In this document: piece by piece, positions 7,625 to 22,265 of the stretch | Layout of the letters: each line of letters opens with the position of its first letter | Numbering within the stretch: the stretch's first letter is position 1 | NCBI GenBank assembly: GCA_040756035.1 | Contig: JBFLZV010000001.1 | Span: 11,892 to 75,891, forward strand | Origin: Pseudomonadota bacterium | Lineage (GTDB): Bacteria > Pseudomonadota > Gammaproteobacteria > SURF-13 | Direction: 5' to 3' | DNA length: 64,000 bases | Notes under the pieces: generated by a model | What the model was told of the DNA's origin: nothing | Databases searched by the model: none | The model's input: the letters and a program-made list of their open reading frames with translations, nothing else | Made by a program: the position numbers and the translations under genes

Positions 7625-9400
7625 ATGTGCGGTATTAGCGGCGAACTACGTTTCAATGGGCAAACGCCCGATCAGGACGCGGTCGCGCGCATGACCGCGG
7701 CCTTGGCGCGGCGCGGGCCGGACGGCGCCGGCGGCTACCGCGACGGCGCGCTGGCCTTCGGGCATCGGCGGCTGGCGGTGATCGACCTGTCGGAGCGCTC
7801 CGCGCAACCCATGCACGACGCCGAACTCGGCCTCGCCATCGTATTCAACGGCACGATCTACAATTACCGTGCATTGCGCGCCGAACTGCAAGCGCGCGGC
7901 TACCGCTTTTTTTCCGAGGGCGACACCGAAGTCATACTCAAAGCCTACGCCGCGTGGGGCGAGCAGTGCGTGGAACGCCTGCACGGCATGTTCGCGTTCG
8001 CCATTTGGGACGGTAAAAAACAAACGCTGTTTCTGGCGCGCGACCGCTTAGGCATCAAGCCGCTGTACTACACGCACACCCAGGATTATTTACGCTTCGC
8101 CTCCACCACGCAGGCGCTGCTCGCGGCGGGCGGCGTGGACACGCGCATCGACCCGGTCGCGCTGCATCATCATTTAACCTTGCACGCTGTGACGCCCGCG
8201 CCGCGCACGATTTTACAGGGCGTGCGCAAGCTCGCGCCCGCCACCACCATGACCGTCACCGCGCAAGGCGCCATCAGCACGCGCCGCTATTGGGAATTAA
8301 AGGCGCAACGTCCGGCGCAGCCGAAAACCGAACAGGAGTGGACCGACGCCGTGCACGAAAAACTGTGCGCGGCGGTGGAAAAACGCCGCACGGTGGCCGA
8401 CGTGCCGGTCGGCGTATTGTTGTCCGGCGGACTCGATTCGAGTTTGATCGTGGCGCTGCTCGCCGAGGCCGGACAAAAAAATCTGCTCACCTTTTCCGTC
8501 GGCTTCGAAGACGCGCCGGAGGAACGCGGCAGCGAATTCGAATATTCCGATCAAGTCGCGGCGCGCTACGCCACGCAGCATCACCGCTTTATCGTGCCCA
8601 ACAGCGAAGTGCTGCCGCGCCTGCACGAGGCCGTGGAAAACATGGCCGAGCCGATGGTGGCGCAAGACGCCGTGGCGTTTTATCTGCTCGCCGAACGTGT
8701 AGCGAAAGAAGTGAAAGTGGTGCAAAGCGGCCAGGGCGCGGATGAAGTGTTCGGCGGTTATTTCTGGTATCCGCTCATGCAGCGCGAAACGGGCAGCGAC
8801 TTGGAACGCTTTCGCAAACATTATTTCGATCGCAGTCACGCGGAATTTTTAGAAGCTGTGCAGCCGTCCTATCACGGCGCGGATCACACGTCGCAACTCA
8901 TCGAAGAACTGCTCGCCGCGCCCGGCGCCGACACCTTCATGGACCGCGTGCTGCGCCTGGACGTCACCACACTCATCGTCGACGACCCCGTCAAGCGCGT
9001 GGACAACATGACCATGGCCTGGGGCCTGGAGGCGCGCGTGCCGTTCCTCGACCATCAATTGGTAGAATTGGCCGCGCAAATGCCGCCCGAATTGAAGCTA
9101 AACAGCGGCGGCAAACACGTATTGAAACGCATCGCGCGCGGCCTGCTGCCCGACGCCGTGATCGACCGTCCCAAGGGCTACTTTCCCATGCCCGCGCTGA
9201 AATACGTGCGCGGCGAATTCCTGAGCTTCATGCGCGAGGTGTTGAATTCCGAAGCCTGCCGTCAGCGCGGCCTGCTGCGGCGCCCCTATGTCGAAAAACT
9301 ACTCGCCGCCCCGGAACAGCATATGACGCCGCTCAACGGCAGCAAGCTGTGGCATCTGGCGCTGCTGGAATATTGGTTGCAATTGAATACAGGCGCTTGA
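7625..9400 (+). CDS. Asparagine synthase-family glutamine amidotransferase (N-acetylglutaminylglutamine amidotransferase-like)
   Basis: Ntn N-terminus MCGI, HRRL, LLSGGLDSS, SGQGADEVFGGY, DDPVKRVDNMTMAWGLEARVPFLD. Confidence 0.9.
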   Translation: MCGISGELRFNGQTPDQDAVARMTAALARRGPDGAGGYRDGALAFGHRRLAVIDLSERSAQPMHDAELGLAIVFNGTIYNYRALRAELQARGYRFFSEGDTEVILKAYAAWGEQCVERLHGMFAFAIWDGKKQTLFLARDRLGIKPLYYTHTQDYLRFASTTQALLAAGGVDTRIDPVALHHHLTLHAVTPAPRTILQGVRKLAPATTMTVTAQGAISTRRYWELKAQRPAQPKTEQEWTDAVHEKLCAAVEKRRTVADVPVGVLLSGGLDSSLIVALLAEAGQKNLLTFSVGFEDAPEERGSEFEYSDQVAARYATQHHRFIVPNSEVLPRLHEAVENMAEPMVAQDAVAFYLLAERVAKEVKVVQSGQGADEVFGGYFWYPLMQRETGSDLERFRKHYFDRSHAEFLEAVQPSYHGADHTSQLIEELLAAPGADTFMDRVLRLDVTTLIVDDPVKRVDNMTMAWGLEARVPFLDHQLVELAAQMPPELKLNSGGKHVLKRIARGLLPDAVIDRPKGYFPMPALKYVRGEFLSFMREVLNSEACRQRGLLRRPYVEKLLAAPEQHMTPLNGSKLWHLALLEYWLQLNTGA

Positions 9401-9448
9401 TCGTTCATGAGCCGGCGGCCTTCTACGGCGGATGACCGCAATCAACCC

Positions 9449-9868
9449 TCATGACTGTACGCAAGCCTTCTGTGCTTCACATAATGCGCAAAGGCGGCAG
9501 AGGCTGAGGTTCTTAAGATGCGCGCCAATAAGCATGGCGCTGGCGGAAAGGGTGAATGGCGTTTCCCAAAGCTCACCCACCATCTCGCCGGCGGCGAAAG
9601 CGGCGAACGCCAGAATAACCCAGCTCAGCAGCGCAACAGCGAGCACCCAAAGCCTGCCGTGCCGCCGGTACCCTGGTATGAAGGCGCATATCCCAGCCCC
9701 CATCAGCAGCAAAGCCAGGATTTGGTGAGTGATTTCCTGTGCCAGAAATCCAAGGCCAAGCCCGGGCAGAAATATCACACTGACCGGCAGCATCAGGCAA
9801 TGCGCCACGCACAGGCCGGAGGCGGAAATGCCCATTCTGTCCCAGTGTGGAACGTATGTTGTAAACAT
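9449..9868 (-). CDS. MerC domain membrane protein
   Basis: DRMGISASGLCVAHCL, GYRRH, AHLKN motifs; four TM segments; RBS before ATG 9868. Confidence 0.82.
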   Translation of the reverse strand: MFTTYVPHWDRMGISASGLCVAHCLMLPVSVIFLPGLGLGFLAQEITHQILALLLMGAGICAFIPGYRRHGRLWVLAVALLSWVILAFAAFAAGEMVGELWETPFTLSASAMLIGAHLKNLSLCRLCALCEAQKACVQS

Positions 9869-9935
9869 TTTTATTTCCTTCCTTAGCTGATTTTCCCGGT
9901 TGGAATTCAGGGTTGCTTCAGCACTGGTTTTACAT

Positions 9936-9952
9936 ATGCAACATAGTTGCAT
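9936..9952. promoter_or_regulatory. Putative operator of the Zur-like regulator
   Basis: Perfect palindrome ATGCAAC-ATA-GTTGCAT upstream of the MerC-like gene; near-identical site at 10527. Confidence 0.7.
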
Positions 9953-9973
9953 TTTAGGACAACACAATAGGGT

Positions 9974-10477
9974 TCATTTACCCAGCGTTTGGGGGTGGTT
10001 CGCCAGCCTGCGCGGCGGCTTCCTGTTGGCGGAAAGCTTGTGCAGCTTGTTTCCAGGTAAACATTGAGCACACAGGCCCTTGACGGTCAATTCAAACCGC
10101 TGCGCACTGTAACCCGGCGGCAGCTTAACCGAACAGGAGCCGCCCGTGTCCTTGAGGCAAAATACCCTGCAACAGCAGTTGCACTTGAAATGCGCGTGCT
10201 GTCCGGCATGCTCCTCATCCGCCACGTTAAACCGCCACACCCGATCATCGCCTGGAATCTTGTGGGCAAGGCGTTGGCGGGTCAGCCATTCCAGCACGCG
10301 GTATACGGTAACCCGGTCAATAGCGTGGGCCCGGCCAAGGCGGCTTTCTATTTCATGGTGAGTCAACGCGCGCCCAGCCTCCAACAAAGCCGCCAGCACC
10401 TGAACGCGCGCCGTTGTCACCCGTGCGCCCGTATGGCGAATCATGTCTTCAGCGGTGCTGGAAAACAGGGTGGTCAT
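9974..10477 (-). CDS. zur: Fur-family transcriptional regulator (Zur-like)
   Basis: RVTTAR, DRVTVYRVLEWL HTH, HAHFKCxxC and C-terminal CxxC; adjacent to Zn uptake genes. Confidence 0.8.
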   Translation of the reverse strand: MTTLFSSTAEDMIRHTGARVTTARVQVLAALLEAGRALTHHEIESRLGRAHAIDRVTVYRVLEWLTRQRLAHKIPGDDRVWRFNVADEEHAGQHAHFKCNCCCRVFCLKDTGGSCSVKLPPGYSAQRFELTVKGLCAQCLPGNKLHKLSANRKPPRRLANHPQTLGK

Positions 10478-10526
10478 ATTTGCAATTCGGTTCCCTCGTT
10501 TCTATTTCAGCATGGATCATCGTGTT

Positions 10527-10543
10527 ATGCAACTCTATTGCAT
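10527..10543. promoter_or_regulatory. Putative operator of the Zur-like regulator in the divergent promoter
   Basis: ATGCAAC-TCT-ATTGCAT, one mismatch from the perfect palindrome at 9936. Confidence 0.68.
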
Positions 10544-10619
10544 TTAGAGCGGACGCCGGTTATCATGCCGCCGAAGCGCCACTCATGCTATTGCAGCAAA
10601 AACCTTTGAGATCGAGCCC

Positions 10620-10925
10620 TTGATGCGCACACGTCTCTACGGCGATCGTCCTCGCCCCGGCAGGCTGCTGAGCCTGCTGCTGGTCTTTTTGCTGCTGTTC
10701 GCGGCGGCGCATGTCAGCCAGCACGACCTGGTGGAGGGCGGCGGCGGCCCCGCCGGCCACAGCGAATGCCAGCTCAGTCACGCGCCGGGCGCGCTGTTAT
10801 GCGCGTCCTCTTCGGCTACCCTGCTGTTTATTCTTGTCTTCGTCGTAACCTTGACCGGCGCCGCGTCTTACACTCAAACCTCGCTGCGCCTCTCGCCCAT
10901 CCGCGCTCCTCCCTCACTGTCCTGA
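10620..10925 (+). CDS. DUF2946/CruR-like leader protein with C-terminal RAPP motif
   Basis: Hydrophobic N-terminal helix, HVSQH, HSECQLSH, ends IRAPPSLS*; first gene of the metal uptake operon. Confidence 0.72.
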   Translation: MMRTRLYGDRPRPGRLLSLLLVFLLLFAAAHVSQHDLVEGGGGPAGHSECQLSHAPGALLCASSSATLLFILVFVVTLTGAASYTQTSLRLSPIRAPPSLS

Positions 10926-11016
10926 TCTTTTTTCATCGGTAGTTCGCTGCCGTAGCGCATCGTAATTGGGTGCGCTGTGGCTTTTGTTTTTGACCGGATA
11001 GAGACAGGAGTCATCC

Positions 11017-12339
11017 ATGTTGACCAGATTCACCCGTTACTCGCGGGCGGCTGCGGCCGCCTGCCTGCTTGGTTATTCAGGCGTTCTGCTCGCCGACGAC
11101 GCCGAGGCAATGCAGCAACGCCTGCAGCAACTTGAACAGGAAATAAAGGCTTTAAAACAGAGCATCAGCGCCATGCAGGACGCCACCCAGCAACAACCTC
11201 ACCTGCCTGCGCCAGTTTCTACCGCCGCGCCGCCTGGCGGTCATAGCCCCATCCAGATAGGGCTGAGCAGCCTGGTCACCGCCGGCGGATCGAGTGTGGA
11301 CAACGAGGCTTTGGAAGGACTGCAAGCCGGCGCGCACGATCCCAATCGCAACGGCTTCACGGTGCAGAACGTGGAGCTGACCCTGAGCGGCGCGGTGGAC
11401 CCTTACTTCGACGCGCAGGCCAGCCTCATCTTCCAGATTGACGCGGGCGGCGAGACCAAGGTCGAACTGGAGGAGGCCTTTTTCACCACGCGCGGCCTGC
11501 CTGCGGGATTGCAGGTCAAGGGCGGGCAGTACTTCACCGAGTTTGGCCGTCATAACCAGCAGCATCCGCATAGCTGGGCCTTCGTGGATCAACCGCTGGT
11601 GCTGTCGCGTCTGTTCGGCGGCGACGGCCTGCGCAGTCAGGGCGCGCGTATTTCCTGGCTCACACCCCTGCCGTGGTATTCAGAATTGTACGTTGGTGCA
11701 CAGAACGCCAGCGGTGAAACGGCAACCAGCTTCTTGTATGAGAAGGACAAAACCGTCGGCGGCCACACACTGCTGGATCGCGATGCGCGCGATCTCGGCG
11801 ACCTGCTGTATTCGGCGCGCTGGCTGAATGGCGTGGATTTATCTGATACCGTGTCCATGAACCTGGGTCTTTCCGGACTGCGGGGGCCGAACGCCAGCGG
11901 GCTTAATACCGACACCACGATCTATGGCGCCGATCTGTATTTGAAATGGCAGCCCTCGCACAGCCAGCGCGGCTTTCCCTTTGTATCCTGGCATAGCGAG
12001 GTGTTGGAGCGGCGCTATGAAACGCCTGACGCCAAACTCAAGGACTGGGGCGGGTTCACGCAGGCGCTGTGGGGCTTCACGCCCGGCTGGGTGGTGGGCC
12101 TGCGCATGGAGTATGCCGAGGGCAGCGGCGGCAAGGCCGGCTATGACATCAGCACTGATGCCTTGCGCGATAACCGCACGCGCCTGTCGCCCAACCTGAC
12201 CTGGTATCCCACCGAGTACAGCAAGCTGCGCCTGCAATACAACCGCGACTGGACCGAGCATCTTGCGGAGAAGGACGCCCATGCGTTGTGGTTGCAATTC
12301 GAGTACAGCCTGGGTGCGCACGCCGCGCATACTTTTTAG
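11017..12339 (+). CDS. Zinc-regulated outer membrane beta-barrel receptor/porin
   Basis: Signal peptide, coiled coil, AVDPYF, ELEEAF, FGRHNQQHPHSWAFVDQP, C-terminal LGAHAAHTF. Confidence 0.82.
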   Translation: MLTRFTRYSRAAAAACLLGYSGVLLADDAEAMQQRLQQLEQEIKALKQSISAMQDATQQQPHLPAPVSTAAPPGGHSPIQIGLSSLVTAGGSSVDNEALEGLQAGAHDPNRNGFTVQNVELTLSGAVDPYFDAQASLIFQIDAGGETKVELEEAFFTTRGLPAGLQVKGGQYFTEFGRHNQQHPHSWAFVDQPLVLSRLFGGDGLRSQGARISWLTPLPWYSELYVGAQNASGETATSFLYEKDKTVGGHTLLDRDARDLGDLLYSARWLNGVDLSDTVSMNLGLSGLRGPNASGLNTDTTIYGADLYLKWQPSHSQRGFPFVSWHSEVLERRYETPDAKLKDWGGFTQALWGFTPGWVVGLRMEYAEGSGGKAGYDISTDALRDNRTRLSPNLTWYPTEYSKLRLQYNRDWTEHLAEKDAHALWLQFEYSLGAHAAHTF

Positions 12340-12348
12340 GAGCGCGCC

Positions 12349-13260
12349 ATGCAATCTATTTGTAAACTTGTCTTAGCCATCGCCCTGTCGGCGCTGCCGC
12401 TGCTTTCCCAGGCCACGCTCAAGGTGGCGGCCACCACGCAGGATCTGGCCGCCATCGCGCAAGAGCTGGGTGGAGACCGGGTGGAGGCGATCAGCCTCAC
12501 CCTGGGCACGCGCGACCCGCACTACGCCGAGGCCAAGCCCAGCATGATCCGTGAGGTCCATGACGCCGACCTGCTGCTGCTGGTCGGGGCCGATCTGGAA
12601 ATCGGCTGGCTGCCGCCGCTGTTGCAGGCGGCGCGCAATCCGCGCGTGCTGCCCGGCAGCGCGGGTTATCTCGATCTTTCCCGCACAGTGCCGCTGCTGG
12701 GGGTGCCCAGCGCGCCGGTGGCGCGCGCCATGGGCGACGTGCACGCCCAAGGCAATCCCCACTACTGGCTGAATCCGGCCAACGGGCTGCGCATGGCGCA
12801 GGCCATAGCCGCGCGCCTCGCCGCGCTGGATGGCGCGCATGCGGCGGACTACCAAGCCAGGCTGACAAACTTTGAGCAACGGTTGCAGGCTAAAATCACG
12901 GCGTGGCAAGCGGCGCTCGCGCCGCTCAAGGGCAAGCCGGTGATCGCCTACCACGACTCGTTCCCGTATCTCGCCGACGCCTTTGGCTTGCACATCGTCG
13001 CTCATGTGGAACCAGTGCCCGGCATCGCGCCCGGTCCAGCCCACCTGCAAAAGCTGGTGGCGCGCATCAAGTCGGAGCAGGTAGGATTGCTGATCATGGA
13101 ACCTTACTACGAACGGCGCTCGGCGAATTATCTCGCCGAACAAACCGGCATCAAGATCGCCGTGTTGCCGCAGTCGGTCGGGAGCGCGCCGCAGATCATG
13201 ACGTACTTCGATCTGTTCGACGCCATCGTCGCCGCGTTGCAAAAGGCCGGGGCGCTTTGA
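12349..13260 (+). CDS. Zn/Mn ABC transporter substrate-binding protein (ZnuA/TroA family)
   Basis: DPHYAEAKPS, GDVHAQGNPHYWL, YHDSFPY motifs; signal peptide. Confidence 0.9.
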   Translation: MQSICKLVLAIALSALPLLSQATLKVAATTQDLAAIAQELGGDRVEAISLTLGTRDPHYAEAKPSMIREVHDADLLLLVGADLEIGWLPPLLQAARNPRVLPGSAGYLDLSRTVPLLGVPSAPVARAMGDVHAQGNPHYWLNPANGLRMAQAIAARLAALDGAHAADYQARLTNFEQRLQAKITAWQAALAPLKGKPVIAYHDSFPYLADAFGLHIVAHVEPVPGIAPGPAHLQKLVARIKSEQVGLLIMEPYYERRSANYLAEQTGIKIAVLPQSVGSAPQIMTYFDLFDAIVAALQKAGAL

Positions 13261-13261
13261 G

Positions 13262-14074
13262 GTGGAAGGCTGGATGATTCTACTGCCGGCTTGCGCCTTA
13301 AGCGTGCTGCTTATTCTCACCCACACCTATCTGGGGCTGCACGTGCTGGCGCGCGGCGTCATCTTTGTGGATCTCGCCCTGGCCCAGGTCGCGGCGCTGG
13401 GCGCGAGCCTGGCGTTTCTGCTCGGCCACGATCCCCACGGCGGCGCGGCCCTGGCGTACGCCTTCGGCGCGGCGCTGCTCGCCTCGCTGGGCTGCGCCTG
13501 GCTGGGCAGGATAGCGGACGTCACCACGCGCGAGGTCGCCATCGGCTGTGTGTACGTGGTGGCCAGCGCCTTATCCATATTGATTTTGAGCCGCTCCAGC
13601 GTGGGTATGGAAGAATTGAAAACCCTGCTCAACGGCAACATCCTGTGGGTACGCTGGCAGGAAGTCGGCGTGATCGCCGCCGTCTACTCTTTATTAATCG
13701 CGGCGCAGATCATGTTGCGCAAGCGCAATGCAGTGCTGGCGTTCGGCAAGCAGACTGCGTTCGGGCGCGAGCTGCTGTTCTTCATGGCGTTTGCCGTGGT
13801 CATCACGCTCGCGGTGCAGATCGCCGGCGTGCTGCTGGTGTTCGCCCTGCTGATTATCCCCGCCTTCAGCGCCACGCTGCTGACCGCGACACCGGCGCTG
13901 CGGCTGACGCTGGGTTATCTGCTGGGCCTAACCGGCAGCATCACCGGCTTGTGGCTCTCCTATGCGGCGGACTTCCCCACCGGCACCACGATGGTGGCGG
14001 TGCTGGGCCTGCTGCCGCTGCTGGCGCTCGCCCTGCGGCCACTGGCGGCACGCAGCCTGGGTGGAATGAAATGA
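13262..14074 (+). CDS. Metal ABC transporter permease (ZnuB/ABC-3 family)
   Basis: HTYLGLHVLARGVIFVDLALAQ, GVLLVFALLIIPA; multi-TM. Confidence 0.88.
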   Translation: MEGWMILLPACALSVLLILTHTYLGLHVLARGVIFVDLALAQVAALGASLAFLLGHDPHGGAALAYAFGAALLASLGCAWLGRIADVTTREVAIGCVYVVASALSILILSRSSVGMEELKTLLNGNILWVRWQEVGVIAAVYSLLIAAQIMLRKRNAVLAFGKQTAFGRELLFFMAFAVVITLAVQIAGVLLVFALLIIPAFSATLLTATPALRLTLGYLLGLTGSITGLWLSYAADFPTGTTMVAVLGLLPLLALALRPLAARSLGGMK

Positions 14075-14125
14075 AACCCAGGGTAATACATCCCGGAGTC
14101 CATGTTGTTTCATCCAGGCTGCTTG

Positions 14126-15460
14126 CTAATAATGTACGTGTTCGGCGTCTGTTTCAGACTCATCCTTATAAAGCGGCCACAATAAATGCGCGTCGAGCAG
14201 CAGGCGGTAACGCGTTTCGCGCGCATTGAGCTGCGCCAGCGCGGCGGCGAGGACGGTTTCCAGAGCCAGGCGGCGGGCGTTGAGTGTGTCGCTCAAGCTT
14301 GCTTCGCCCAGGCTGTAGGCGCGCGCCATGAGTCCGGCGTTGCGCTGCATGGCGTCCGCCGCCGCTTGCGCGCTTTGCCAGGCCTCGTAGGCGCTGGCGG
14401 CGGCTGCGTAGGTGTTGATGATCTCGGCGTTGAGGCGGCGCAATGTTTCGGCCTCTTTTTGCGCGGCGATGGAGGATTGCGCGAGCGCGGCGGACTGCGC
14501 GGCGGCGCGCGCCTCGCCCGCCAGCGGGATGGATAAGAATAATCCCGTGACCTGTTCCGCGCCTCCTCTTTCCGAGGTGGTGTTGAGCCCCACGGTCGGA
14601 TCGGGGGTGCGATCCGCGCTGGAGCGGTTGAGGTGCAGTTGCGCACGTTCCACCTCGCCTCGCATCAGCGCCAGTTCATGGTTGTGCTCCAGTATGCGTG
14701 TGCGCCAGTCCTCCAGTTCCTCTTGCAACGGTTCCGGCTCCACAAAAACCGGATTGTCCGGCAGCGTAAGTCCGGGATAACGCTGTTTGAGATCGGTGGC
14801 CGCCATCTGCGCGCGCAGTTCGGCCTGCTTGAGCGCGTATACGGCTTGCGCCAGCGCCGCCTCGCTGAGCGAACGTTCCAGCGCCGGAGCGTCACCGGCC
14901 GCGATGCGCTTGTTCACGATGGTCAGTTGCTCCTTGAGCACTGCCGTTTGCTCTTGCCACTGCTTGACTTGCGCGTGTTCTTGCAGCCAGGTAAACCAAT
15001 AGCGCAGCAAGCTGCGTCCGGATTCATGCAAGGCATCGCCCAGGGCGAGCCGCGCCTGACGCACGCCTTGCGTGCCCAACTGCTGATCTATCCTGGCCTT
15101 GCCGGGCAGACGCAGGCTGCGCTCCAACGCCGCCTCCCATTCATTGAAATTGCCATCGTTGTCCACGCTGCGCTGCCTGGCGCCCAGTTTCGCATTGAAC
15201 TCATACGGCCCGGCGTTGAGGCTGCGTGCGTTGGCCTGCTCCAGCTCGATGCCCGCCTCCGCCGCCTTGACCTGCGGGCTGTTCGCCATTACCTCGGTCA
15301 CCACATTGAGCGGCGGCAAATCGGGGTGATCGGTCGCTCCCGGCATCCTGCCTCCCACGACACTAGTACGCCCCTGTACGTCGGCGAACGGCTCTTGCTC
15401 CAAGGGTGCGGCCATGGCGCATGCGGTAAAAAAACTCACCAGCCAAAGGATGTGCTTCAC
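14126..15460 (-). CDS. TolC/CzcC-family outer membrane efflux protein
   Basis: Signal peptide, helical OEP repeats (RIAAGDAP, AYSLGE); last gene of the RND operon. Confidence 0.85.
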   Translation of the reverse strand: MKHILWLVSFFTACAMAAPLEQEPFADVQGRTSVVGGRMPGATDHPDLPPLNVVTEVMANSPQVKAAEAGIELEQANARSLNAGPYEFNAKLGARQRSVDNDGNFNEWEAALERSLRLPGKARIDQQLGTQGVRQARLALGDALHESGRSLLRYWFTWLQEHAQVKQWQEQTAVLKEQLTIVNKRIAAGDAPALERSLSEAALAQAVYALKQAELRAQMAATDLKQRYPGLTLPDNPVFVEPEPLQEELEDWRTRILEHNHELALMRGEVERAQLHLNRSSADRTPDPTVGLNTTSERGGAEQVTGLFLSIPLAGEARAAAQSAALAQSSIAAQKEAETLRRLNAEIINTYAAAASAYEAWQSAQAAADAMQRNAGLMARAYSLGEASLSDTLNARRLALETVLAAALAQLNARETRYRLLLDAHLLWPLYKDESETDAEHVHY

Positions 15461-15768
15461 AGGAAACTCCCAAACTCCGTAACCGGAGTCATGTAATAGA
15501 CGATATTGGTGCGCGGCAGCACCTGCTTGATATCCCGCAGCAAGGTTTGCGTATCGGCATGATGCATGGTGATTTTCATCTCTACCCGGTGTGCACGGCC
15601 GCGCACTTTTTCGGCCATGCTCTGATAGGCGACATTGCGCCCGTGACCCTCCACCTCGGAGGTAATGAATCCACCAGCAAGCGCTTCGTGCTCAAGCAGC
15701 AAGTCCAGCAGATTTTCTTCCAGCGCCTTGGGGACAATCAGCGTCAAACAACAATCGGGCGGGTTCAT
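15457..15768 (-). CDS. DUF3240 family (PII-like fold) protein
   Basis: LTLIVPKALEENLLDLLL, GHG...SMAEKVRGR, PVTEFG; sits between czcA and tolC; start ATG 15768. Confidence 0.8.
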   Translation of the reverse strand: MNPPDCCLTLIVPKALEENLLDLLLEHEALAGGFITSEVEGHGRNVAYQSMAEKVRGRAHRVEMKITMHHADTQTLLRDIKQVLPRTNIVYYMTPVTEFGSFL

Positions 15769-15770
15769 TT

Positions 15771-18700
15771 TCAGGCCTCCTTCGGGCTTATGCCAAAGCG
15801 GCGATAGAGAATGGGCAGCAGGATCAGCGTCAGCAGCGTGGCGCTTACCAGACCTCCGATCACCACAATCGCCAAAGGTTTTTGAATTTCCGATCCGGGG
15901 CCGCTGGCGAACAGCAGCGGCGCCAGGCCGAACGCGGCGATGCTCGCGGTCATCAGCACCGGACGTAGACGCCGCTTGGCGCCCTCCACCACTAGATACT
16001 CGAGCGCCATGCCCTGCGCGCGCAGTTGGTTGAAATACGTGACCATCACCACGCCGTTCAGTACGGCGATACCGAGCAGGGCGATAAAGCCCACCGAGGC
16101 AGGTACGGACAGATATTCCCCAGATAGCCACAGCGCGAACACACCGCCGACCATGGCGAACGGAATATTGGTAAGCACCAGCACCGCTTGGCGCACGGAG
16201 CCGAAGGTGGCGAACAACACCAGGAAAATCAGCCCCAACGCGACCGGCACCACGATGGTCAAGCGCGCGGCGGCGCGTTGCTGGTTTTCAAATTGCCCGC
16301 CCCAGCTCAGCCGGTAACCGTCGGGTAATTTCACGCGCTCACCCACCGCCCGTCGGGCCTCTTCCACAAAGCCGACCAGATCGCGGCCCTGCACATTGGA
16401 GAGCGTCACGGCCATGCGCGCGCCGTTTTCACGGTCTATCTTGACCGGCCCGTCCACGCGCTGCAAGTTGGCCACGGTGGAGATCGGGACATTCCCGCCA
16501 TTGGGCAAAGCCAGGGTCAGCTGGGAAAACAGGGTCGGCGAGGTGCGCACGCTATCCTCACCGCGCAGCAACACCGGCGTGCGCCGCGCCCCTTCCAGCA
16601 CCACGCCCAAGGTCTTGCCTTCCAGTTGCGAGCGCAGCGCCTCGCCGATGTCATCCACGTTCAGGCCCATGCGCCCGGCGGCGAGCCGGTCAATCCCGAC
16701 CGTAAGGTATTGCACACCCTCATTCTGCACCGTGTACACGTCCTGGCTGCCGCGGATGGTCTTCAGCACTGTCTCGATCTCCGTCGCCAAGCGGTTAAGG
16801 ACGGCGAGATCCGGCCCGAACACCTTCACCGCGATATCGCCGCGCACGCCGATAATCATCTCTTGCACGCGCATGTCTATCGGCTGGGTGAAGCTGTAGG
16901 AAATGCCGGGTAGTTGATCGAGCACCTTACGCAGTTCATCTTTCAGCCATTCCTTGTCAGGTTCGCGCCACTCGCTGCGTGGCTTGGTCTGTAGATAGGT
17001 GTCAGTCTGATTCAGTCCCATCGGATCGAGGCCCAGCTCATCTGCTCCGGCGCGCGCCACGATGCCGGTTACTTCCGGCACCCGGCCCATGATCGCCTGA
17101 TGTATTTTCAAATCCAGCGCGGCGGTTTGTTCCAGGCTGATGGACGGCAGTTTCTCGATGCCGACGATGAGATCACCCTCATCCATTTCCGGCATGAAGG
17201 TCTTGCCGGTTTGCGTGTAAACAAAAACAGTCAACAGCAATGCCACGCCGGCTGCCGTCACAACGGTTTTTACGTGATTCAAGGACCAGCGCAACACCGG
17301 CTCATACAGCGCGTTGGCCTTGCGCACCAGCCATGGCTCATTATGCGTAACCCGTTTCAGCAGGAACGAGGCGAGCACCGGAATAATCGTGAGCGAGAGC
17401 ACCAGCGAACCGGACAGGGCGAACACGATGGTCAATGCCACCGGAATGAACAGCTTGCCCTCCAAGCCTTGCAGTGTGAGCAGCGGCAGGAACACGATGA
17501 TGATAATCAGAATACCGGCGGTCACGGGTGTCGCCACCTCGCGCACCGCGCGGTAAATCACGTGCAGACGCGGCAGCTTCGCGGCGCTCTTGTCGTGCGC
17601 CAAGTGCGAGACGGTGTTTTCCACCACCACCACCGCCGCATCCACCAGCATGCCGATGGCAATCGCCAAGCCGCCCAGGCTCATCAGATTGGCCGACATG
17701 CCGAACAAACGCATCATGATAAAAGTAACCAGCGCCGCCAGCGGCAAGGTCAGCGCCACCACCAGGGCAGCGCGAAGATTGCCGAGAAACAAGATGAGCA
17801 GGATGACCACCAGCACGATGGCCTCCAATAAAGCCTCGGAGACCGTGCCGACCGCGCGCTCCACCAGACTGCCGCGATCATAAAACACTTCGGTCTTCAC
17901 GCCTTTGGGAAGCGCGGGCGCAAGCTCCGCGAGCTTCGCGCGCACACCCTCCACCACTTGCTGCGCGTTCGCGCCGCGCAGGCCCAGCACCAGGCCCTGC
18001 ACCGCCTCCCCCTTGCCGTCCTTGGTGACTACGCCGTAGCGCGTGAGACTGCCGATGCGCACCTCGGCTACATCGCCCACGCGCACCGGCATACCGTCGC
18101 GGCTGGCGATGACGATGGCGCGCAAGTCGTCCAGCGTCTTGATCGTGCCCTCGGTGCGCACCAGCAACACCTCTTCGCCGTCGGTGAGACGTCCCGCGCC
18201 GTCGTTGCGGTTATTGGTTTCCAGCGCCGCCTGCAATTCATCCAGGCCAATGCCACGCGCGCGCAACGCCATGTTGTCCGGCACAACCTCGAAGCTGCGC
18301 ACCAGCCCGCCCAGCGCGTTGACATCGGCCACGCCCGGCAAGGTGCGCAGCGCCGGGCGGATCACCCAGTCCAATAGGCTGCGGCGCTCCATGAGCGAGA
18401 GATCGCCGCCCTCGATGGTGAACATGAACATCTCGCCGAGCGGCGTGGTGATCGGCGCGAGGCCGCCGGAAATACCGGAGGGAAGATCGCCGGCGATGTT
18501 GTTGTAGCGCTCCGCAACCTGTTGCCGCGCCCAGTAGATATCGGTGCCGTCTTCGAAGTCGAGGGTGATGTCGGTCAGCCCGTATTTGGTCACCGAGCGC
18601 AGGATTTTCTGGTTCGGGATCCCGATCATCTCCACCTCAATGGGCGCAGTGATGCGCGCCTCCACCTCTTCCGGTGTCATGCCGGGGGCCTTGATGATAA

Positions 18701-18848
18701 CCTTGACCTGTGTGGACGAGACGTCGGGAAAGGCGTCTATGGGTAGGCCCTTGAAGGCGTAGCCGCCGCCCGCGATGAGCAGCAGCATGAGTAGCAACAT
18801 CAGCAAACGTTGCGTCAGGGCGAATTCGACAAGGCGTGTCAACATCAT
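15771..18848 (-). CDS. czcA: CusA/CzcA heavy-metal efflux RND transporter
   Basis: LPIDAFPDV, ANLMSLGG, GMLVDAAVVVVEN, RLRPVLMTA; 1025 aa. Confidence 0.95.
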   Translation of the reverse strand: MMLTRLVEFALTQRLLMLLLMLLLIAGGGYAFKGLPIDAFPDVSSTQVKVIIKAPGMTPEEVEARITAPIEVEMIGIPNQKILRSVTKYGLTDITLDFEDGTDIYWARQQVAERYNNIAGDLPSGISGGLAPITTPLGEMFMFTIEGGDLSLMERRSLLDWVIRPALRTLPGVADVNALGGLVRSFEVVPDNMALRARGIGLDELQAALETNNRNDGAGRLTDGEEVLLVRTEGTIKTLDDLRAIVIASRDGMPVRVGDVAEVRIGSLTRYGVVTKDGKGEAVQGLVLGLRGANAQQVVEGVRAKLAELAPALPKGVKTEVFYDRGSLVERAVGTVSEALLEAIVLVVILLILFLGNLRAALVVALTLPLAALVTFIMMRLFGMSANLMSLGGLAIAIGMLVDAAVVVVENTVSHLAHDKSAAKLPRLHVIYRAVREVATPVTAGILIIIIVFLPLLTLQGLEGKLFIPVALTIVFALSGSLVLSLTIIPVLASFLLKRVTHNEPWLVRKANALYEPVLRWSLNHVKTVVTAAGVALLLTVFVYTQTGKTFMPEMDEGDLIVGIEKLPSISLEQTAALDLKIHQAIMGRVPEVTGIVARAGADELGLDPMGLNQTDTYLQTKPRSEWREPDKEWLKDELRKVLDQLPGISYSFTQPIDMRVQEMIIGVRGDIAVKVFGPDLAVLNRLATEIETVLKTIRGSQDVYTVQNEGVQYLTVGIDRLAAGRMGLNVDDIGEALRSQLEGKTLGVVLEGARRTPVLLRGEDSVRTSPTLFSQLTLALPNGGNVPISTVANLQRVDGPVKIDRENGARMAVTLSNVQGRDLVGFVEEARRAVGERVKLPDGYRLSWGGQFENQQRAAARLTIVVPVALGLIFLVLFATFGSVRQAVLVLTNIPFAMVGGVFALWLSGEYLSVPASVGFIALLGIAVLNGVVMVTYFNQLRAQGMALEYLVVEGAKRRLRPVLMTASIAAFGLAPLLFASGPGSEIQKPLAIVVIGGLVSATLLTLILLPILYRRFGISPKEA

Positions 18849-19945
18849 TCACCTCCACCCAGCCCCTGCCACGCGCCTTTCAAGGCCGCCACCCCACGCA
18901 CCGCGATATGCTCATCGCCGCGCAACGGGCCTTGAATGGTACTGGTCTCCGCCGCTGCATTGACAACCGTCACTGCTTGCGCCCGAAATCCGCCCGGGGT
19001 TTGCACAAACACATACACCCCACCCGCTTGGTGAACCAGCGCCTGGTTCGGCACCTCCCATTGCGCTGTCGGGGGACTAGACGCAGCGATCAACACTTCA
19101 ATTTGTTGTCCGGGTCGCAGGCGTTGCGCACCCTCGCTCACCTCGGCGCGCACCATCACCGCCTGATTCGCACTGCCCACGCTGCGTCCCACCGACAGCA
19201 CCTTGCCGGCGGCTTGGTAGGTGGGCACAGCGACCGTGTCGCCTTGATTTATCTGCCCCAGCCGCGCCAGCGGGACCGCGATCTCCAGCCACAGTGGCGT
19301 AAGACTCGCCACTTTATACAGCGGCGTCGCCGCCTCGGTGCGCTGCCCCGCCGTCGCCATCTGCTCCAACACCACGCCGCTGATAGGCGAGACAATTTCG
19401 ACGACGCTGGTCAGCGTGCGTTTATCGCGCAATTGCTGTATGGCCGGAACACTCATGCCGTACAGCGCCAACAACTGCTCGCGCTCGGCCAATTCGGCGG
19501 CGGTCTGGGTAAGCTCGTTTTGCGTCGTTAAATAGCGGCTTTTTGCGATAATACCTTCCTTAAACAGTTGCTCGTCGCGTCGCAGGTTCTCACGTTGCAG
19601 CGCCGCGCGCGTCACCGCTTGCAGGAATGCCCGTTGCGCCTCGATGAGGGCGGGGCTTTTCAGGCGCGCCAGCACCTCCCCTTGTTTTACCTCTTGATTC
19701 ACCGCCACCATCATGCCCTCCACGAAACCGTCCGTGGGCGCACTCACGATGTGCATCTGATTGTTGGGGATAACGACTTGCGCGGGCAAACCCGTCCCCG
19801 CCGCAGCATTCTGTTTCCGGAGAGGAGCGGTCGCAACGCCCAACGCTTGCGCCTGTTGGGCGGACATCGAAACTTCCTCGCCTGCGCTCGACAGCGCGGC
19901 ATACAGCATGCTCATCAATAGAAAAACTGCGCGTATAGTACGCAT
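18845..19945 (-). CDS. RND efflux membrane fusion protein (CzcB-like)
   Basis: Lipoyl/hairpin motifs (VSAPTDG, IVSPISGVV, LWLE); ATGA overlap with czcA. Confidence 0.9.
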   Translation of the reverse strand: MRTIRAVFLLMSMLYAALSSAGEEVSMSAQQAQALGVATAPLRKQNAAAGTGLPAQVVIPNNQMHIVSAPTDGFVEGMMVAVNQEVKQGEVLARLKSPALIEAQRAFLQAVTRAALQRENLRRDEQLFKEGIIAKSRYLTTQNELTQTAAELAEREQLLALYGMSVPAIQQLRDKRTLTSVVEIVSPISGVVLEQMATAGQRTEAATPLYKVASLTPLWLEIAVPLARLGQINQGDTVAVPTYQAAGKVLSVGRSVGSANQAVMVRAEVSEGAQRLRPGQQIEVLIAASSPPTAQWEVPNQALVHQAGGVYVFVQTPGGFRAQAVTVVNAAAETSTIQGPLRGDEHIAVRGVAALKGAWQGLGGGE

Positions 19946-20057
19946 ACCATCTCCTCAAACGCGCTGCATGGTTAGTGTTCAATGCTGAACGCAGCGGCAC
20001 AGCCTACGCCCTAAAGAATAGAACGCGGCATTTATTTACCGAAGGGGAACAGCGGGT

Positions 20058-20480
20058 TTAAAACAAGAAAGGAGGTGCGTGACTGAGAGGGGTAATGAAA
20101 GAAGCAGAGGTAACGTATAGACCGGGCAGCGCGGCTGCGCTGGTCAGGCGCCGCTCCCGTTGCGGCAGGGCAAAACCGGGTAGCGGCGCGGCCCCGTTAA
20201 GCGACGGGAAAAACTCGTCGGAGGCGACGAGGCTGGGTGTGTCCAACGCCGAGATCCTCAGCTCAGGGCACGACTCTCGTTCAGAGCTTAGACAGTACAA
20301 CTCTATCGGCTCATGGAAGACATGCGCATGAACACCCTGTGCGCCGCTGTCCACGCTATCAGGATGCGCATGCAGCAAGGGGGCCACGCATTGCAAGAAT
20401 GCAAGGAGTAGAATGGCTGGTATTTTTTTAAACTTGGCGGTCACCGGGGCATAATAACTCACCGGCAATAAGTTTTCCAT
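20058..20480 (-). CDS. DUF2946-like leader protein with C-terminal HAPP motif
   Basis: Hydrophobic helix then LLHAH, second HAH, ends SHAPPFLF*; first gene of the efflux operon; true start may be GTG 20444. Confidence 0.62.
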   Translation of the reverse strand: MENLLPVSYYAPVTAKFKKIPAILLLAFLQCVAPLLHAHPDSVDSGAQGVHAHVFHEPIELYCLSSERESCPELRISALDTPSLVASDEFFPSLNGAAPLPGFALPQRERRLTSAAALPGLYVTSASFITPLSHAPPFLF

Positions 20481-20495
20481 CGAACCTCAAGGGCC

Positions 20496-21200
20496 ATGTT
20501 TAACGACTTTTTGCAGGGCTCCAGCCTATGGACCCCCATTTGGCTTACGCTACGCCTGGCGGCGCTCACCAGCCTCGGCCTGCTGATCGTGGGCACGCCG
20601 CTGGCGTGGTGGCTGGCGCGCACCCGTTCGCGGCTGAAAACGCCCATCGAGGCGATCGTGGCGCTGCCGCTGGTGCTGCCGCCCACCGTGCTGGGGTTTT
20701 ATCTGCTTATTGCGCTGAGCCCGCAAGGGGCGATCGGCGCGCCGTGGCTGGCGCTTACCGGGTCGACGCTGGCGTTTTCCTTCAGCGGCTTAGTGATCGG
20801 CTCCATGTTGTACTCCCTGCCGTTCGTCGTGCAACCGCTGCAAAACGCCTTTGAGGGGGTGCACACCAGCTTGCTGGACGCGGCCAGTCTATTGGGCGCG
20901 CCGCCCGCGCGGCGTTTTTTCAGCATCGTCGCGCCGCTCTCCGTGCGCGGCTTCATCACCGCCCTGACCTTGGGCTTCGCGCATACCGTCGGCGAATTCG
21001 GCGTGGTGCTGATGATCGGCGGCAACATCCCCGGCCAGACGCGCGTGCTGTCCATCGCCATTTACGATCACGTGGAAAGCCTGGAATACGGGCACGCAAA
21101 CGTGTTGTCCATCGGCTTGCTGGTATTTTCGTTCCTGATTTTATCGCTTATTTATTCCCTCAACCGCCGCTGGCGCATTGTGCCTACCGCTAACCGCTGA
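20496..21200 (+). CDS. modB: Molybdate ABC transporter permease
   Basis: LPLVLPPTVLGFYLL, YSLPFVVQP, FAHTVGEFGVVLMIGGNIPG. Confidence 0.95.
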   Translation: MFNDFLQGSSLWTPIWLTLRLAALTSLGLLIVGTPLAWWLARTRSRLKTPIEAIVALPLVLPPTVLGFYLLIALSPQGAIGAPWLALTGSTLAFSFSGLVIGSMLYSLPFVVQPLQNAFEGVHTSLLDAASLLGAPPARRFFSIVAPLSVRGFITALTLGFAHTVGEFGVVLMIGGNIPGQTRVLSIAIYDHVESLEYGHANVLSIGLLVFSFLILSLIYSLNRRWRIVPTANR

Positions 21201-21221
21201 CAAGCTGCTATCATTTGCCGC

Positions 21222-22265
21222 ATGACCACACTGCTGGAACTGAAAAACATCGAGTGCCGCTACGGTCAGCAAGTCGCCGTGCGCGATCTGTCCATGCACG
21301 TCAAACAGGGCAGCCTGGTGTGTTTGCTGGGGCCCTCGGGCTGCGGCAAGACCACGGTGCTGCGCGCCATCGCCGGTTTCGAGCCGGTGGTGCACGGCGA
21401 GATCGTGCTGGACGATAAAATCATCTCGCGTCCCGGCTATAGCCTGGCCCCGGAATGCCGCCACGTCGGCATGGTGTTTCAGGATTACGCGCTGTTTCCG
21501 CACATGACAGTCGAGGCCAACGTCGCCTTCGGGCTGCGCGGATTATCGATGGCGTCGCGCCGCGACGTCACGGCGCGCATGTTGGAAATCGTCGGCCTAA
21601 GCGGCCTGGGCGCGCGCTATCCGCACGAACTGTCCGGCGGACAGCAGCAGCGCGTGGCCCTGGCGCGCGCGCTCGCGCCGCGCCCGACGCTGATCCTGAT
21701 GGACGAGCCGTTTTCCAATCTCGACGTGGACATGCGCGAACGGCTCAGCGGAGAAGTGCGCGACATCCTCAAGAACCAGGGCGCCACCGGTATTCTGGTC
21801 ACGCACGATCAGCACGAGGCGTTCGCGCTGGGCGACCAAATCGGCGTGATGCACGAGGGGAAAATCCTGCAGTGGGATACGCCGTATAATCTTTATCACG
21901 AACCGGTCAGTCGCTTCGTCGCCGACTTCATCGGCCAGGGTATTTTCCTGCGCGGCACGCTGCTCACGCCCGACACCGTGCAGACCGAAATCGGCATCAT
22001 CAAGGGCAACCGCGCCTACGACTGGCCGCCCGGCGCCCAAGTCGATTTGCTGGTGCGACCCGACGACATCGTGCACGATGACCACGCGCCGATGCGCGCC
22101 GAGGTGATTCACAAGGCCTTCAAGGGCGCGGAAATCATGTACACGCTGCGCCTGCCGACCGGCAGTAAAGTGTTCTCGATGTTCCCCAGCCACCATGATC
22201 ACGCCATCGGCGAGAAAGTCGGCATCAAGGTCGAGGCCGACCACCTGGTGGCGTTTCGCGCCTAG
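21222..22265 (+). CDS. ABC transporter ATP-binding protein (FbpC/PotA family, TOBE domain)
   Basis: [41 protein letters not shown]. Confidence 0.9.
   Translation: MTTLLELKNIECRYGQQVAVRDLSMHVKQGSLVCLLGPSGCGKTTVLRAIAGFEPVVHGEIVLDDKIISRPGYSLAPECRHVGMVFQDYALFPHMTVEANVAFGLRGLSMASRRDVTARMLEIVGLSGLGARYPHELSGGQQQRVALARALAPRPTLILMDEPFSNLDVDMRERLSGEVRDILKNQGATGILVTHDQHEAFALGDQIGVMHEGKILQWDTPYNLYHEPVSRFVADFIGQGIFLRGTLLTPDTVQTEIGIIKGNRAYDWPPGAQVDLLVRPDDIVHDDHAPMRAEVIHKAFKGAEIMYTLRLPTGSKVFSMFPSHHDHAIGEKVGIKVEADHLVAFRA

Follow-up and report, generated by a model that had tools for sequence, protein, structure and literature searches.

Between positions 10,620 and 20,480 of a 64,000-nt stretch of DNA from a gammaproteobacterium of the SURF-13 lineage (GenBank assembly GCA_040756035.1, contig JBFLZV010000001.1, forward-strand positions 11,892 to 75,891; the whole stretch is called the window here), two convergent metal-transport operons each begin with a small upstream open reading frame (uORF) that ends in an (R/H)APP motif three residues before the stop codon. 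On the plus strand, uORF1 (10623..10925; 100 amino acids, with TTG 10620 as an alternative start) encodes a signal or transmembrane (TM) helix, the elements HVSQH...HSECQLSH...C and the end IRAPPSLS*, whose Ile-Arg-Ala-Pro-Pro codons, three tail codons and stop occupy 10902..10925. A gap of 91 nt separates it from the gene of an outer-membrane protein (11017..12339) with its Shine-Dalgarno sequence (SD; GACAGGAG, 11003..11010), followed by genes for a ZnuA-family periplasmic metal-binding protein (12349..13260) and an ABC-3 (ZnuB-type) permease (13262..14074), all plus strand. On the minus strand, uORF2 ends in SHAPPFLF* and lies 112 nt ahead of genes for a CzcB/CusB-like periplasmic adaptor of the resistance-nodulation-division (RND) type (18845..19945; SD GAGGAG at 19951..19956), a CusA/CzcA-family heavy-metal RND pump (15771..18848; above the TIGR00914 cut-off), a DUF3240 (PII-like) protein (15457..15765) and a TolC/CzcC-like outer-membrane efflux protein (14126..15460).

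The frames, gap lengths and short strings listed in the initial annotation of this DNA were all found where it had placed them. The open frame 20058-20480 of uORF2 is real, but the start is most likely GTG 20444, which yields 128 amino acids (20058..20444, minus strand) with a signal helix, LQCxxPLLHAH, HxxxH, ELYC..C and the PLSHAPP end plus three residues. Because this GTG lies only 6 nt past the -10 hexamer of a sigma-70-like promoter (TGGAAA-17-TATTAT, 20451..20479, minus strand), the uORF2 mRNA is likely leaderless; in relatives of uORF2 the start codon follows a hexamer resembling TATTAT by 6-8 nt. The export signals of both leaders were judged by inspection of the hydrophobic stretch. 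The (R/H)APP tails of both leaders exceed chance in this genome: in a set of 22,538 stop-ended frames with a length of 50 or more amino acids, R[AG]PP occurs within the final 10 residues of 31 frames and H[AG]PP in those of 3.

For an order-level view of conservation we used 20 genomes from one family. uORF1 is present in all eight relatives (one clipped by a contig end) that have a close orthologue of the outer-membrane protein, and it ends in RAPP (six) or RGPP (two), always three residues before the stop, with pS (0.42) exceeding pN (0.22). A profile search from uORF1 retrieved 31 proteins with RAPP (26) or RGPP (5) and no other tail. The outer-membrane protein was found in 91 of 401 sampled genomes of the class; 68 of its loci were looked at, four of which were truncated, and an Arg-x-PP leader stands at 61 of the 64 usable loci (57 by filter and four more). 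CxxC is present in 46 of the 57, 46-51 residues ahead of the Arg (mode 48). In uORF1, HSECQLSH aligns to ECQVCRLSH of the distant leaders with three residues of the CxxC stretch deleted. This deletion accounts for a spacing of 45 from C49 to R94, compared with 49 in the copper leader CruR (Bp2923; DUF2946/PF11162), where the CxxC-RAPP spacing of 49 is required and the signal sequence is dispensable (PMC9426467). The uORF1 homologue P0029 scores above the cut-off of DUF2946 (25.2 > 23.7), and 19 of those 57 importer leaders match this family at E<=0.01, three of them above the cut-off. Judged from these alignments, uORF1 is likely a CruR-like leader descended from DUF2946-like leaders, although two features of that family, the PF11162 score and CxxC, are missing from it.

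Some further observations concern the importer leaders. A third leader is encoded in the same genome (contig C70:3029-3352; L012:994-1317); it has CxxC, ends in RAPPAFL* and sits 66 nt ahead of a paralogous outer-membrane protein/ZnuA/ZnuB operon, the SD of which is predicted to pair with its tail. Pfam and NCBIfam searches with this leader and the two window leaders gave nothing meaningful. In two loci the leader is intact and the outer-membrane protein gene is broken, by an insertion past the start (L006) or an internal TAG (L008). A general leaderless start for the distant importer leaders found weak support (TANNNT 5-10 nt upstream of the guessed starts in 13 of 57, SD-like sequences in four). 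DUF2607 is matched by four of the 57 leaders (L085, L087, L088 and L089; one above the cut-off), and a search of the 401 genomes gave two positives, both leaders of outer-membrane protein/ZnuA/ZnuB operons. DUF2607 is ZrgD of Vibrio, encoded at an end of the zrg cluster of zinc starvation (PMC9817125, Table 1); these matches suggest that ZrgD itself may be a RAPP leader.

uORF2 with HAPP stands before nine of 11 czcB orthologues, those at 70-76% identity (pS 0.56, pN 0.31), so that conservation of the end motif among orthologues, which the initial annotation had made a point of, holds for both leaders. The His of HAPP is invariant in 10 of 10 close-family leaders, as are the three Cys of uORF2. 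The N-terminal motif pattern of uORF2 picked out 23 loci (five being relatives counted before), at 21 of which RND genes follow, as recognised by eye from their N-termini; the remaining two have another gene and a contig edge. Their tails are QAPP (10), HAPP (6), GPPP/APPP (4), LAPP (2) and CAPP (1), never with Arg. Over the whole genome collection searched, the family has 51 representatives; 48 of them end in xAPP, where x is Gln in 20, His in 14, Arg in 5 and another residue in 9, the Arg count being biased since the search profile itself contains HAPP. Invariant positions in 46 sequences of about 26% mean identity are Q, P, H, H and APP, and P at -4 is nearly so. CxxC occurs in one of the 51 members. 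HxH lies 91-112 residues from the tail in the family and about 98 before the arrest motif in uORF2, a placement closer to that of the metal motif in CutF. A Pfam search with 45 members gave no match at E<=0.05, DUF2946 included.

The two leaders had been described as sharing one design. This is true only loosely: a profile-profile comparison of the uORF1 group with the uORF2 family gave a probability of 5%, with the likeness confined to the tail, and shared ancestry is unsupported. By this comparison the uORF2 family is a separate, unnamed one, unrelated to the uORF1 leaders. In a tail-free tree of the family (23 of 45 branches unresolved) the xAPP residue has switched several times, and the supported sister pairs include H/R and Q/H ones. 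The initial annotation had further regarded both leaders as His-based sensors. CxxC is indeed absent from both, but since invariant Cys are kept (C49 and C60 in uORF1), neither is purely His-based in this lineage. As a side observation, the QAPP-ending family member at L054 precedes a non-RND gene whose product, going by the N-terminus, looks like a receptor of the chemotaxis type.

In both operons folding predicts a paired SD, though mostly not as first proposed, namely between the APP codons (CTCCT) and the AGGAG of the downstream ribosome-binding site (RBS). At uORF1 this pairing reaches probabilities of 0.02-0.27, and the supposed additional CTGTC/GACAG pairing at most 0.02; the two are mutually exclusive because both use 11006-11007. 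The main predicted anti-SD is TCCTG 10920-10924, which pairs with CAGGA 11005-11009 at 0.44-0.71 in four of five folding windows (0.05 in the fifth), and in a nine-sequence consensus the SD partner is the last codon plus the stop. The RAPP codons are the main SD partner in three of 44 distant importer loci. At uORF2 the original proposal fares better: CTCCT 20074-20070 with AGGAG 19955-19951 is the consensus pairing of eight relatives and reaches 0.50 in the whole-ORF fold, but 0.01-0.08 in four local windows, and the 6-bp register scores 0.00; the PP codons and the tail compete as partner here. When the leader end is masked, as by the ribosome footprint that the initial annotation had suggested for folding, the median cost of opening the SD drops from 7.3 to 2.7 kcal/mol in uORF1 loci (8 of 9 loci), from 5.4 to 2.6 in uORF2 loci (7 of 10) and from 7.0 to 2.7 in distant importer loci (37 of 44). 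At L016 and L023, hairpin-rich, repeat-like inserts have widened the gap past uORF2 (284 and 265 nt), and pairing of the SD with the leader end is predicted all the same.

Taking the observed ORFs, motifs, spacing, conservation and gene context together with the predicted RNA pairing, and borrowing stalling, metal sensing and its direction from other systems, we lean towards the view that both leaders are conserved ORFs that pause their own ribosome and thereby unmask the next RBS, with opposite effects of metal on import and pump. The ribosome would pause at the terminal (R/H)APP of its own leader and uncover the downstream RBS, which would mean "on" in both operons. In uORF1, an Arg-dependent arrest would be the default, and metal bound about 45 residues upstream, near the tunnel exit, would release it and turn zinc uptake off, in addition to a likely Zur-type repression. 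In uORF2, a weaker HAPP pause would normally be passed; it would last longer, and the pump would be turned on, when metal binds the exported His/Cys cluster that lies 60-100 residues before it. Periplasmic sensing, assumed for both leaders at the outset, fits uORF2 with its distant HxH but is unclear for uORF1, where the spacing is as in CruR.

Several results weigh against this proposal. Removing sequence lowers pairing in any case, which qualifies the masking test, and the fairer shuffle control gives a modest effect (0.57 vs 0.36; 29 of 44 loci exceed the control). The window's own uORF1 is an exception to the masking result, its cost barely changing from 7.3 to 6.8 kcal/mol as a GU-rich alternative hairpin keeps the SD paired. 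No two-sided compensatory change in the SD helix was seen among nine uORF1 loci. uORF1 gives no match to PF11162 (cut-off 23.7), and neither window leader passed the DUF2946 search that the initial annotation had called for. No leader is found at two of the 11 czcB orthologues, which have 54-57% identity. HAPP may stall poorly here, because Arg cannot be replaced in the arrest of ApcA, ApdA and ApdP. Finally, in a survey of czc leaders, likewise foreseen, few leaders were found from the RND side (47 czcB loci, 40 regions before czcC): five of the 40 sampled regions have one, most sampled czcCBA-type operons do without, and the seven uORF2-family leaders found upstream of RND genes all end in RAPP or RGPP. 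These seven rule out a strict rule of Arg for import and His/Gln for export, and Fisher values for such a rule were set aside since they take no account of kinship or of the profile bias; judged from the tails, Arg is fixed in import leaders and merely variable in pump leaders.

The same leaders might instead act on transcription, with a stalled ribosome blocking Rho, as it does in CruR, or, at uORF1, favouring an antiterminator over a terminator, and with RBS pairing being secondary; we consider this rather unlikely. The gap after uORF1 (10937..10991, plus strand) does contain a terminator-like 13-bp hairpin (10949-10981) with a T-tract reaching 10991, whose stem is kept with compensatory changes in nine loci, and, overlapping it, an alternative hairpin of 6 bp (10937-10952). 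For the window and one close relative, terminator formation is predicted at 0.88-0.95 in free RNA but at 0.42 once masking of the ORF end lets the competing hairpin form, and the C-rich tails of both ORFs (C-G excess 11-26 per 60 nt) resemble the rut site of CruR. The switch is nevertheless predicted at only two of nine uORF1 loci, a near-identical pair; the stem does not abut the T-tract in several; the C-richness is partly owed to Pro and Leu codons; and the uORF2 gap yielded no call of a hairpin followed by a T-tract. The hairpins after uORF1 are, in these folding models, a possible attenuator in the window lineage, and a stalled ribosome would mean "on" whether it works via the SD or via attenuation. 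A GTAGTTC-like word, which makes up the competing hairpin at uORF1, recurs 10-15 nt past the stop in both leader families (e.g. in relatives L002, L005 and L017-L023).

Less probable still, in our judgement, is that the leaders stall but monitor secretion or membrane insertion in the manner of SecM or ApdP, or just boost expression, while the Fur-family regulator alone handles metal. RAPP-like arrest peptides are classically Sec monitors, all downstream products are envelope proteins and the palindromic operator lies across the likely promoter of the importer, but such a role would not account for the invariant His/Cys clusters and the fixed Cys-to-Arg spacing; the operator is absent from four of the eight full-length relatives that have uORF1, and no copy of it lies before the pump operon. 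We give marginally less credit again to the idea that uORF2 is a relaxed, non-stalling descendant, i.e. a CzcI-like small exported metal-binding protein in which His arose by drift from Arg. Codons for R, H and Q differ by a single base, the tail residues of the family show no clustering beyond that of shuffles, and CzcI heads czcCBA without a proline motif. Drift is harder to reconcile with an APP that is invariant, and a P at -4 that is nearly so, at such low overall identity, with the fixed His of the close family, or with the presence, in 39 of 48 tails, of R, Q or H, which are the residues at which arrest is known to work.

Returning to ribosome pausing that exposes the next RBS, a further step, which we take only tentatively and would rather doubt than assert, is that arrest strength and sensor position set the sign of a leader, with zinc-uptake leaders across Gammaproteobacteria on one side, holding an invariant Arg-x-PP and a metal site at the tunnel exit (stalled by default and freed by zinc, a first zinc counterpart of CruR), and on the other side an unnamed family of pump leaders that tunes a weak (H/Q/R)APP pause through an exported His cluster (stalled in response to metal). 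If true, the locus would carry both leader kinds face to face. How one type of stalling leader turns uptake off but detoxification on is a question raised by CruR and CutF, and this locus brings both leader types, which differ clearly in anatomy, together in a single genome. Moreover, the survey indicates that nearly every copy of a widespread operon, likely one of zinc uptake, has such a putative leader, and the pump-leader family would be mostly invisible to surveys restricted to RAPP/RGPP.

Zinc had been assumed for both operons. For import this is well supported: the uORF1 operon is very likely one of zinc uptake, with a ZnuA neighbour at 67 of the 68 outer-membrane protein loci, and the same three-gene cluster in Vibrio (omr-znuA2-znuB2) is induced 283-1034-fold by zinc deficiency (PMC9817125). 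Manganese may be the substrate instead, since none of the ZnuA, AztC and MntC models reaches its cut-off. The operon has no ABC ATPase gene, which is also true of the Vibrio cluster, and 29 ABC ATPase matches lie elsewhere in the genome. The outer-membrane protein had no match among PDB sequences, and its single-sequence structure model was unusable (pLDDT 37.5).

For export, zinc is unestablished. The best solved-structure match of the pump is ZneA (704 bits; CusA 643). In the printed alignments it keeps acidic residues at what we take to be the zinc-site positions of ZneA, and does not keep what is presumably the methionine triad of CusA, which favours divalent ions as substrates, with zinc not specifically indicated by the sequence. 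Its TM4 motif AIGMLVDAAVVVVEN departs from DFG-x3-DGA-x3-VEN of the CzcA-type (HME1/2) Zn/Co/Cd pumps (PMC3637150).

Upstream of uORF1 we identified a putative Fur-family (Zur-like) operator and promoter (10527..10566, plus strand), in which a 17-bp palindrome (10527-10543) overlaps a by-eye promoter (-35 TTGCAT, 17 nt, -10 TATCAT) that a promoter scan left uncalled. A divergent Zur-like gene for a Fur-family regulator (9974..10477, minus strand; below the NCBIfam cut-offs) follows, then a perfect second copy of the palindrome (9936..9952) upstream of a gene for a MerC-family membrane protein (9449..9967, minus strand; the real start is probably internal). The two copies flanking the Fur-family gene suggest joint regulation of the MerC-family gene and zinc uptake. 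This arrangement was found at four of 224 loci, and the palindrome core has only five sites genome-wide at up to one mismatch; it may resemble the betaproteobacterial Zur box. An Rfam search of 9400-21300 gave no match. Four soil RNA runs from one study contained about 10% of the words, as contigs of a relative with flat depth, and are uninformative on expression. Genes for a ModB-type permease and an ABC ATPase (20496-22265) diverge from uORF2 with no binding-protein gene adjoining, and an opposite-strand predicted promoter (20427-20455) falls within the 5' end of uORF2. In another family (L182, genome G218), an uptake and an RND operon are also convergent, each with its own leader, both RAPP-ended.

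In comparison with known systems, uORF1 shares with CruR its place as first gene of an uptake operon, the export signal, a Cys motif some 45-49 residues ahead of RAPP, the distance of three residues from RAPP to the stop and the C-rich tail. It differs in HSECQLSH replacing CxxC, in the new Cys60, in the lack of a DUF2946 match, in its target (CruR leads a copper TonB transporter) and in a gap of 91 rather than 162 nt with a terminator-like hairpin and Zur-like operator. Arrest by CruR has been demonstrated (PMC12992588); its stalling is EF-P-independent and relieved by copper, whereas that of CutF (C41xxxC45, PPP near residue 115) is EF-P-sensitive and copper-induced (10.1101/2025.02.05.636593). 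The Vibrio omr-znuA2-znuB2 cluster has the same three-gene zinc-uptake layout under Zur (PMC9817125), our outer-membrane protein corresponding to Omr by annotation name and gene order, not by alignment. Also on record is a Zn/Cd RND operon that starts with a DUF2946 gene (Caulobacter CC2720-czrCBA; PMC4176598). Among the matches listed in PMC12992588, RAPP uORFs exceed AAPP ones before RND adaptors (620 vs 148), TolC (530 vs 380) and "carbohydrate porin" genes (54 vs 5), with RAPP rows before "zinc-regulated TonB-dependent" receptors as well; one leader analysed here has an identical counterpart among such rows. The terms ZnuA, porin and RND gave no match in three supplements of Roy 2022 (PMC9426467). 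A literature search, with subscription journals largely outside its coverage, returned no paper on a zinc-responsive RAPP leader and, in line with the initial annotation, none on HAPP before an RND operon.

uORF2 resembles CutF-like leaders in its signal peptide, its exportable His/Cys cluster, an Arg-less tail with PP among the last 15 residues, a predicted structure that shields the SD, and a detoxification gene next, and is within their size and distance limits (128 amino acids, <150; gap of 112 nt, <1000). uORF1 is likewise covered by these rules (100 amino acids, PP within 15 C-terminal residues, signal peptide, a same-strand gene after 91 nt). uORF2 differs from CutF in lacking CxxxC, in HAPP instead of GPPP, in the absence of a Pfam match in 45 members and in its czcB-czcA-DUF3240-czcC target. 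In the CutF-like survey, RND outer-membrane efflux genes are the commonest neighbours, His-only clusters occur and CutF is opposed to CruR (Ozturk 2023; PMC9973294, 10.1101/2022.11.11.516240), so that the opposite logic of importer and exporter leaders, raised in the initial annotation, had already been stated there; its 29 clusters may already hold uORF2 relatives. The HAPP and QAPP peptides tried in published work arrest ribosomes in vitro, HAPP weakly on those of E. coli, with a lower reported efficiency in vivo, maybe through EF-P (Fujiwara 2024; PMC10987492). These RQH arrest peptides resemble uORF2 in bearing HAPP/QAPP near the C-terminus of a signal-bearing uORF, but in that account they lead secA, secDF or yidC and monitor export, none preceding a metal pump, whereas the uORF2 family stands before RND genes at 21 of 23 loci. 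The regulatory principle is thus already known, from CutF-like leaders before RND genes with His-only clusters, the CruR/CutF opposition and HAPP/QAPP arrest; what appears new, by analogy with these systems, is a likely zinc version of CruR beside a weak-motif family of pump leaders at one locus.

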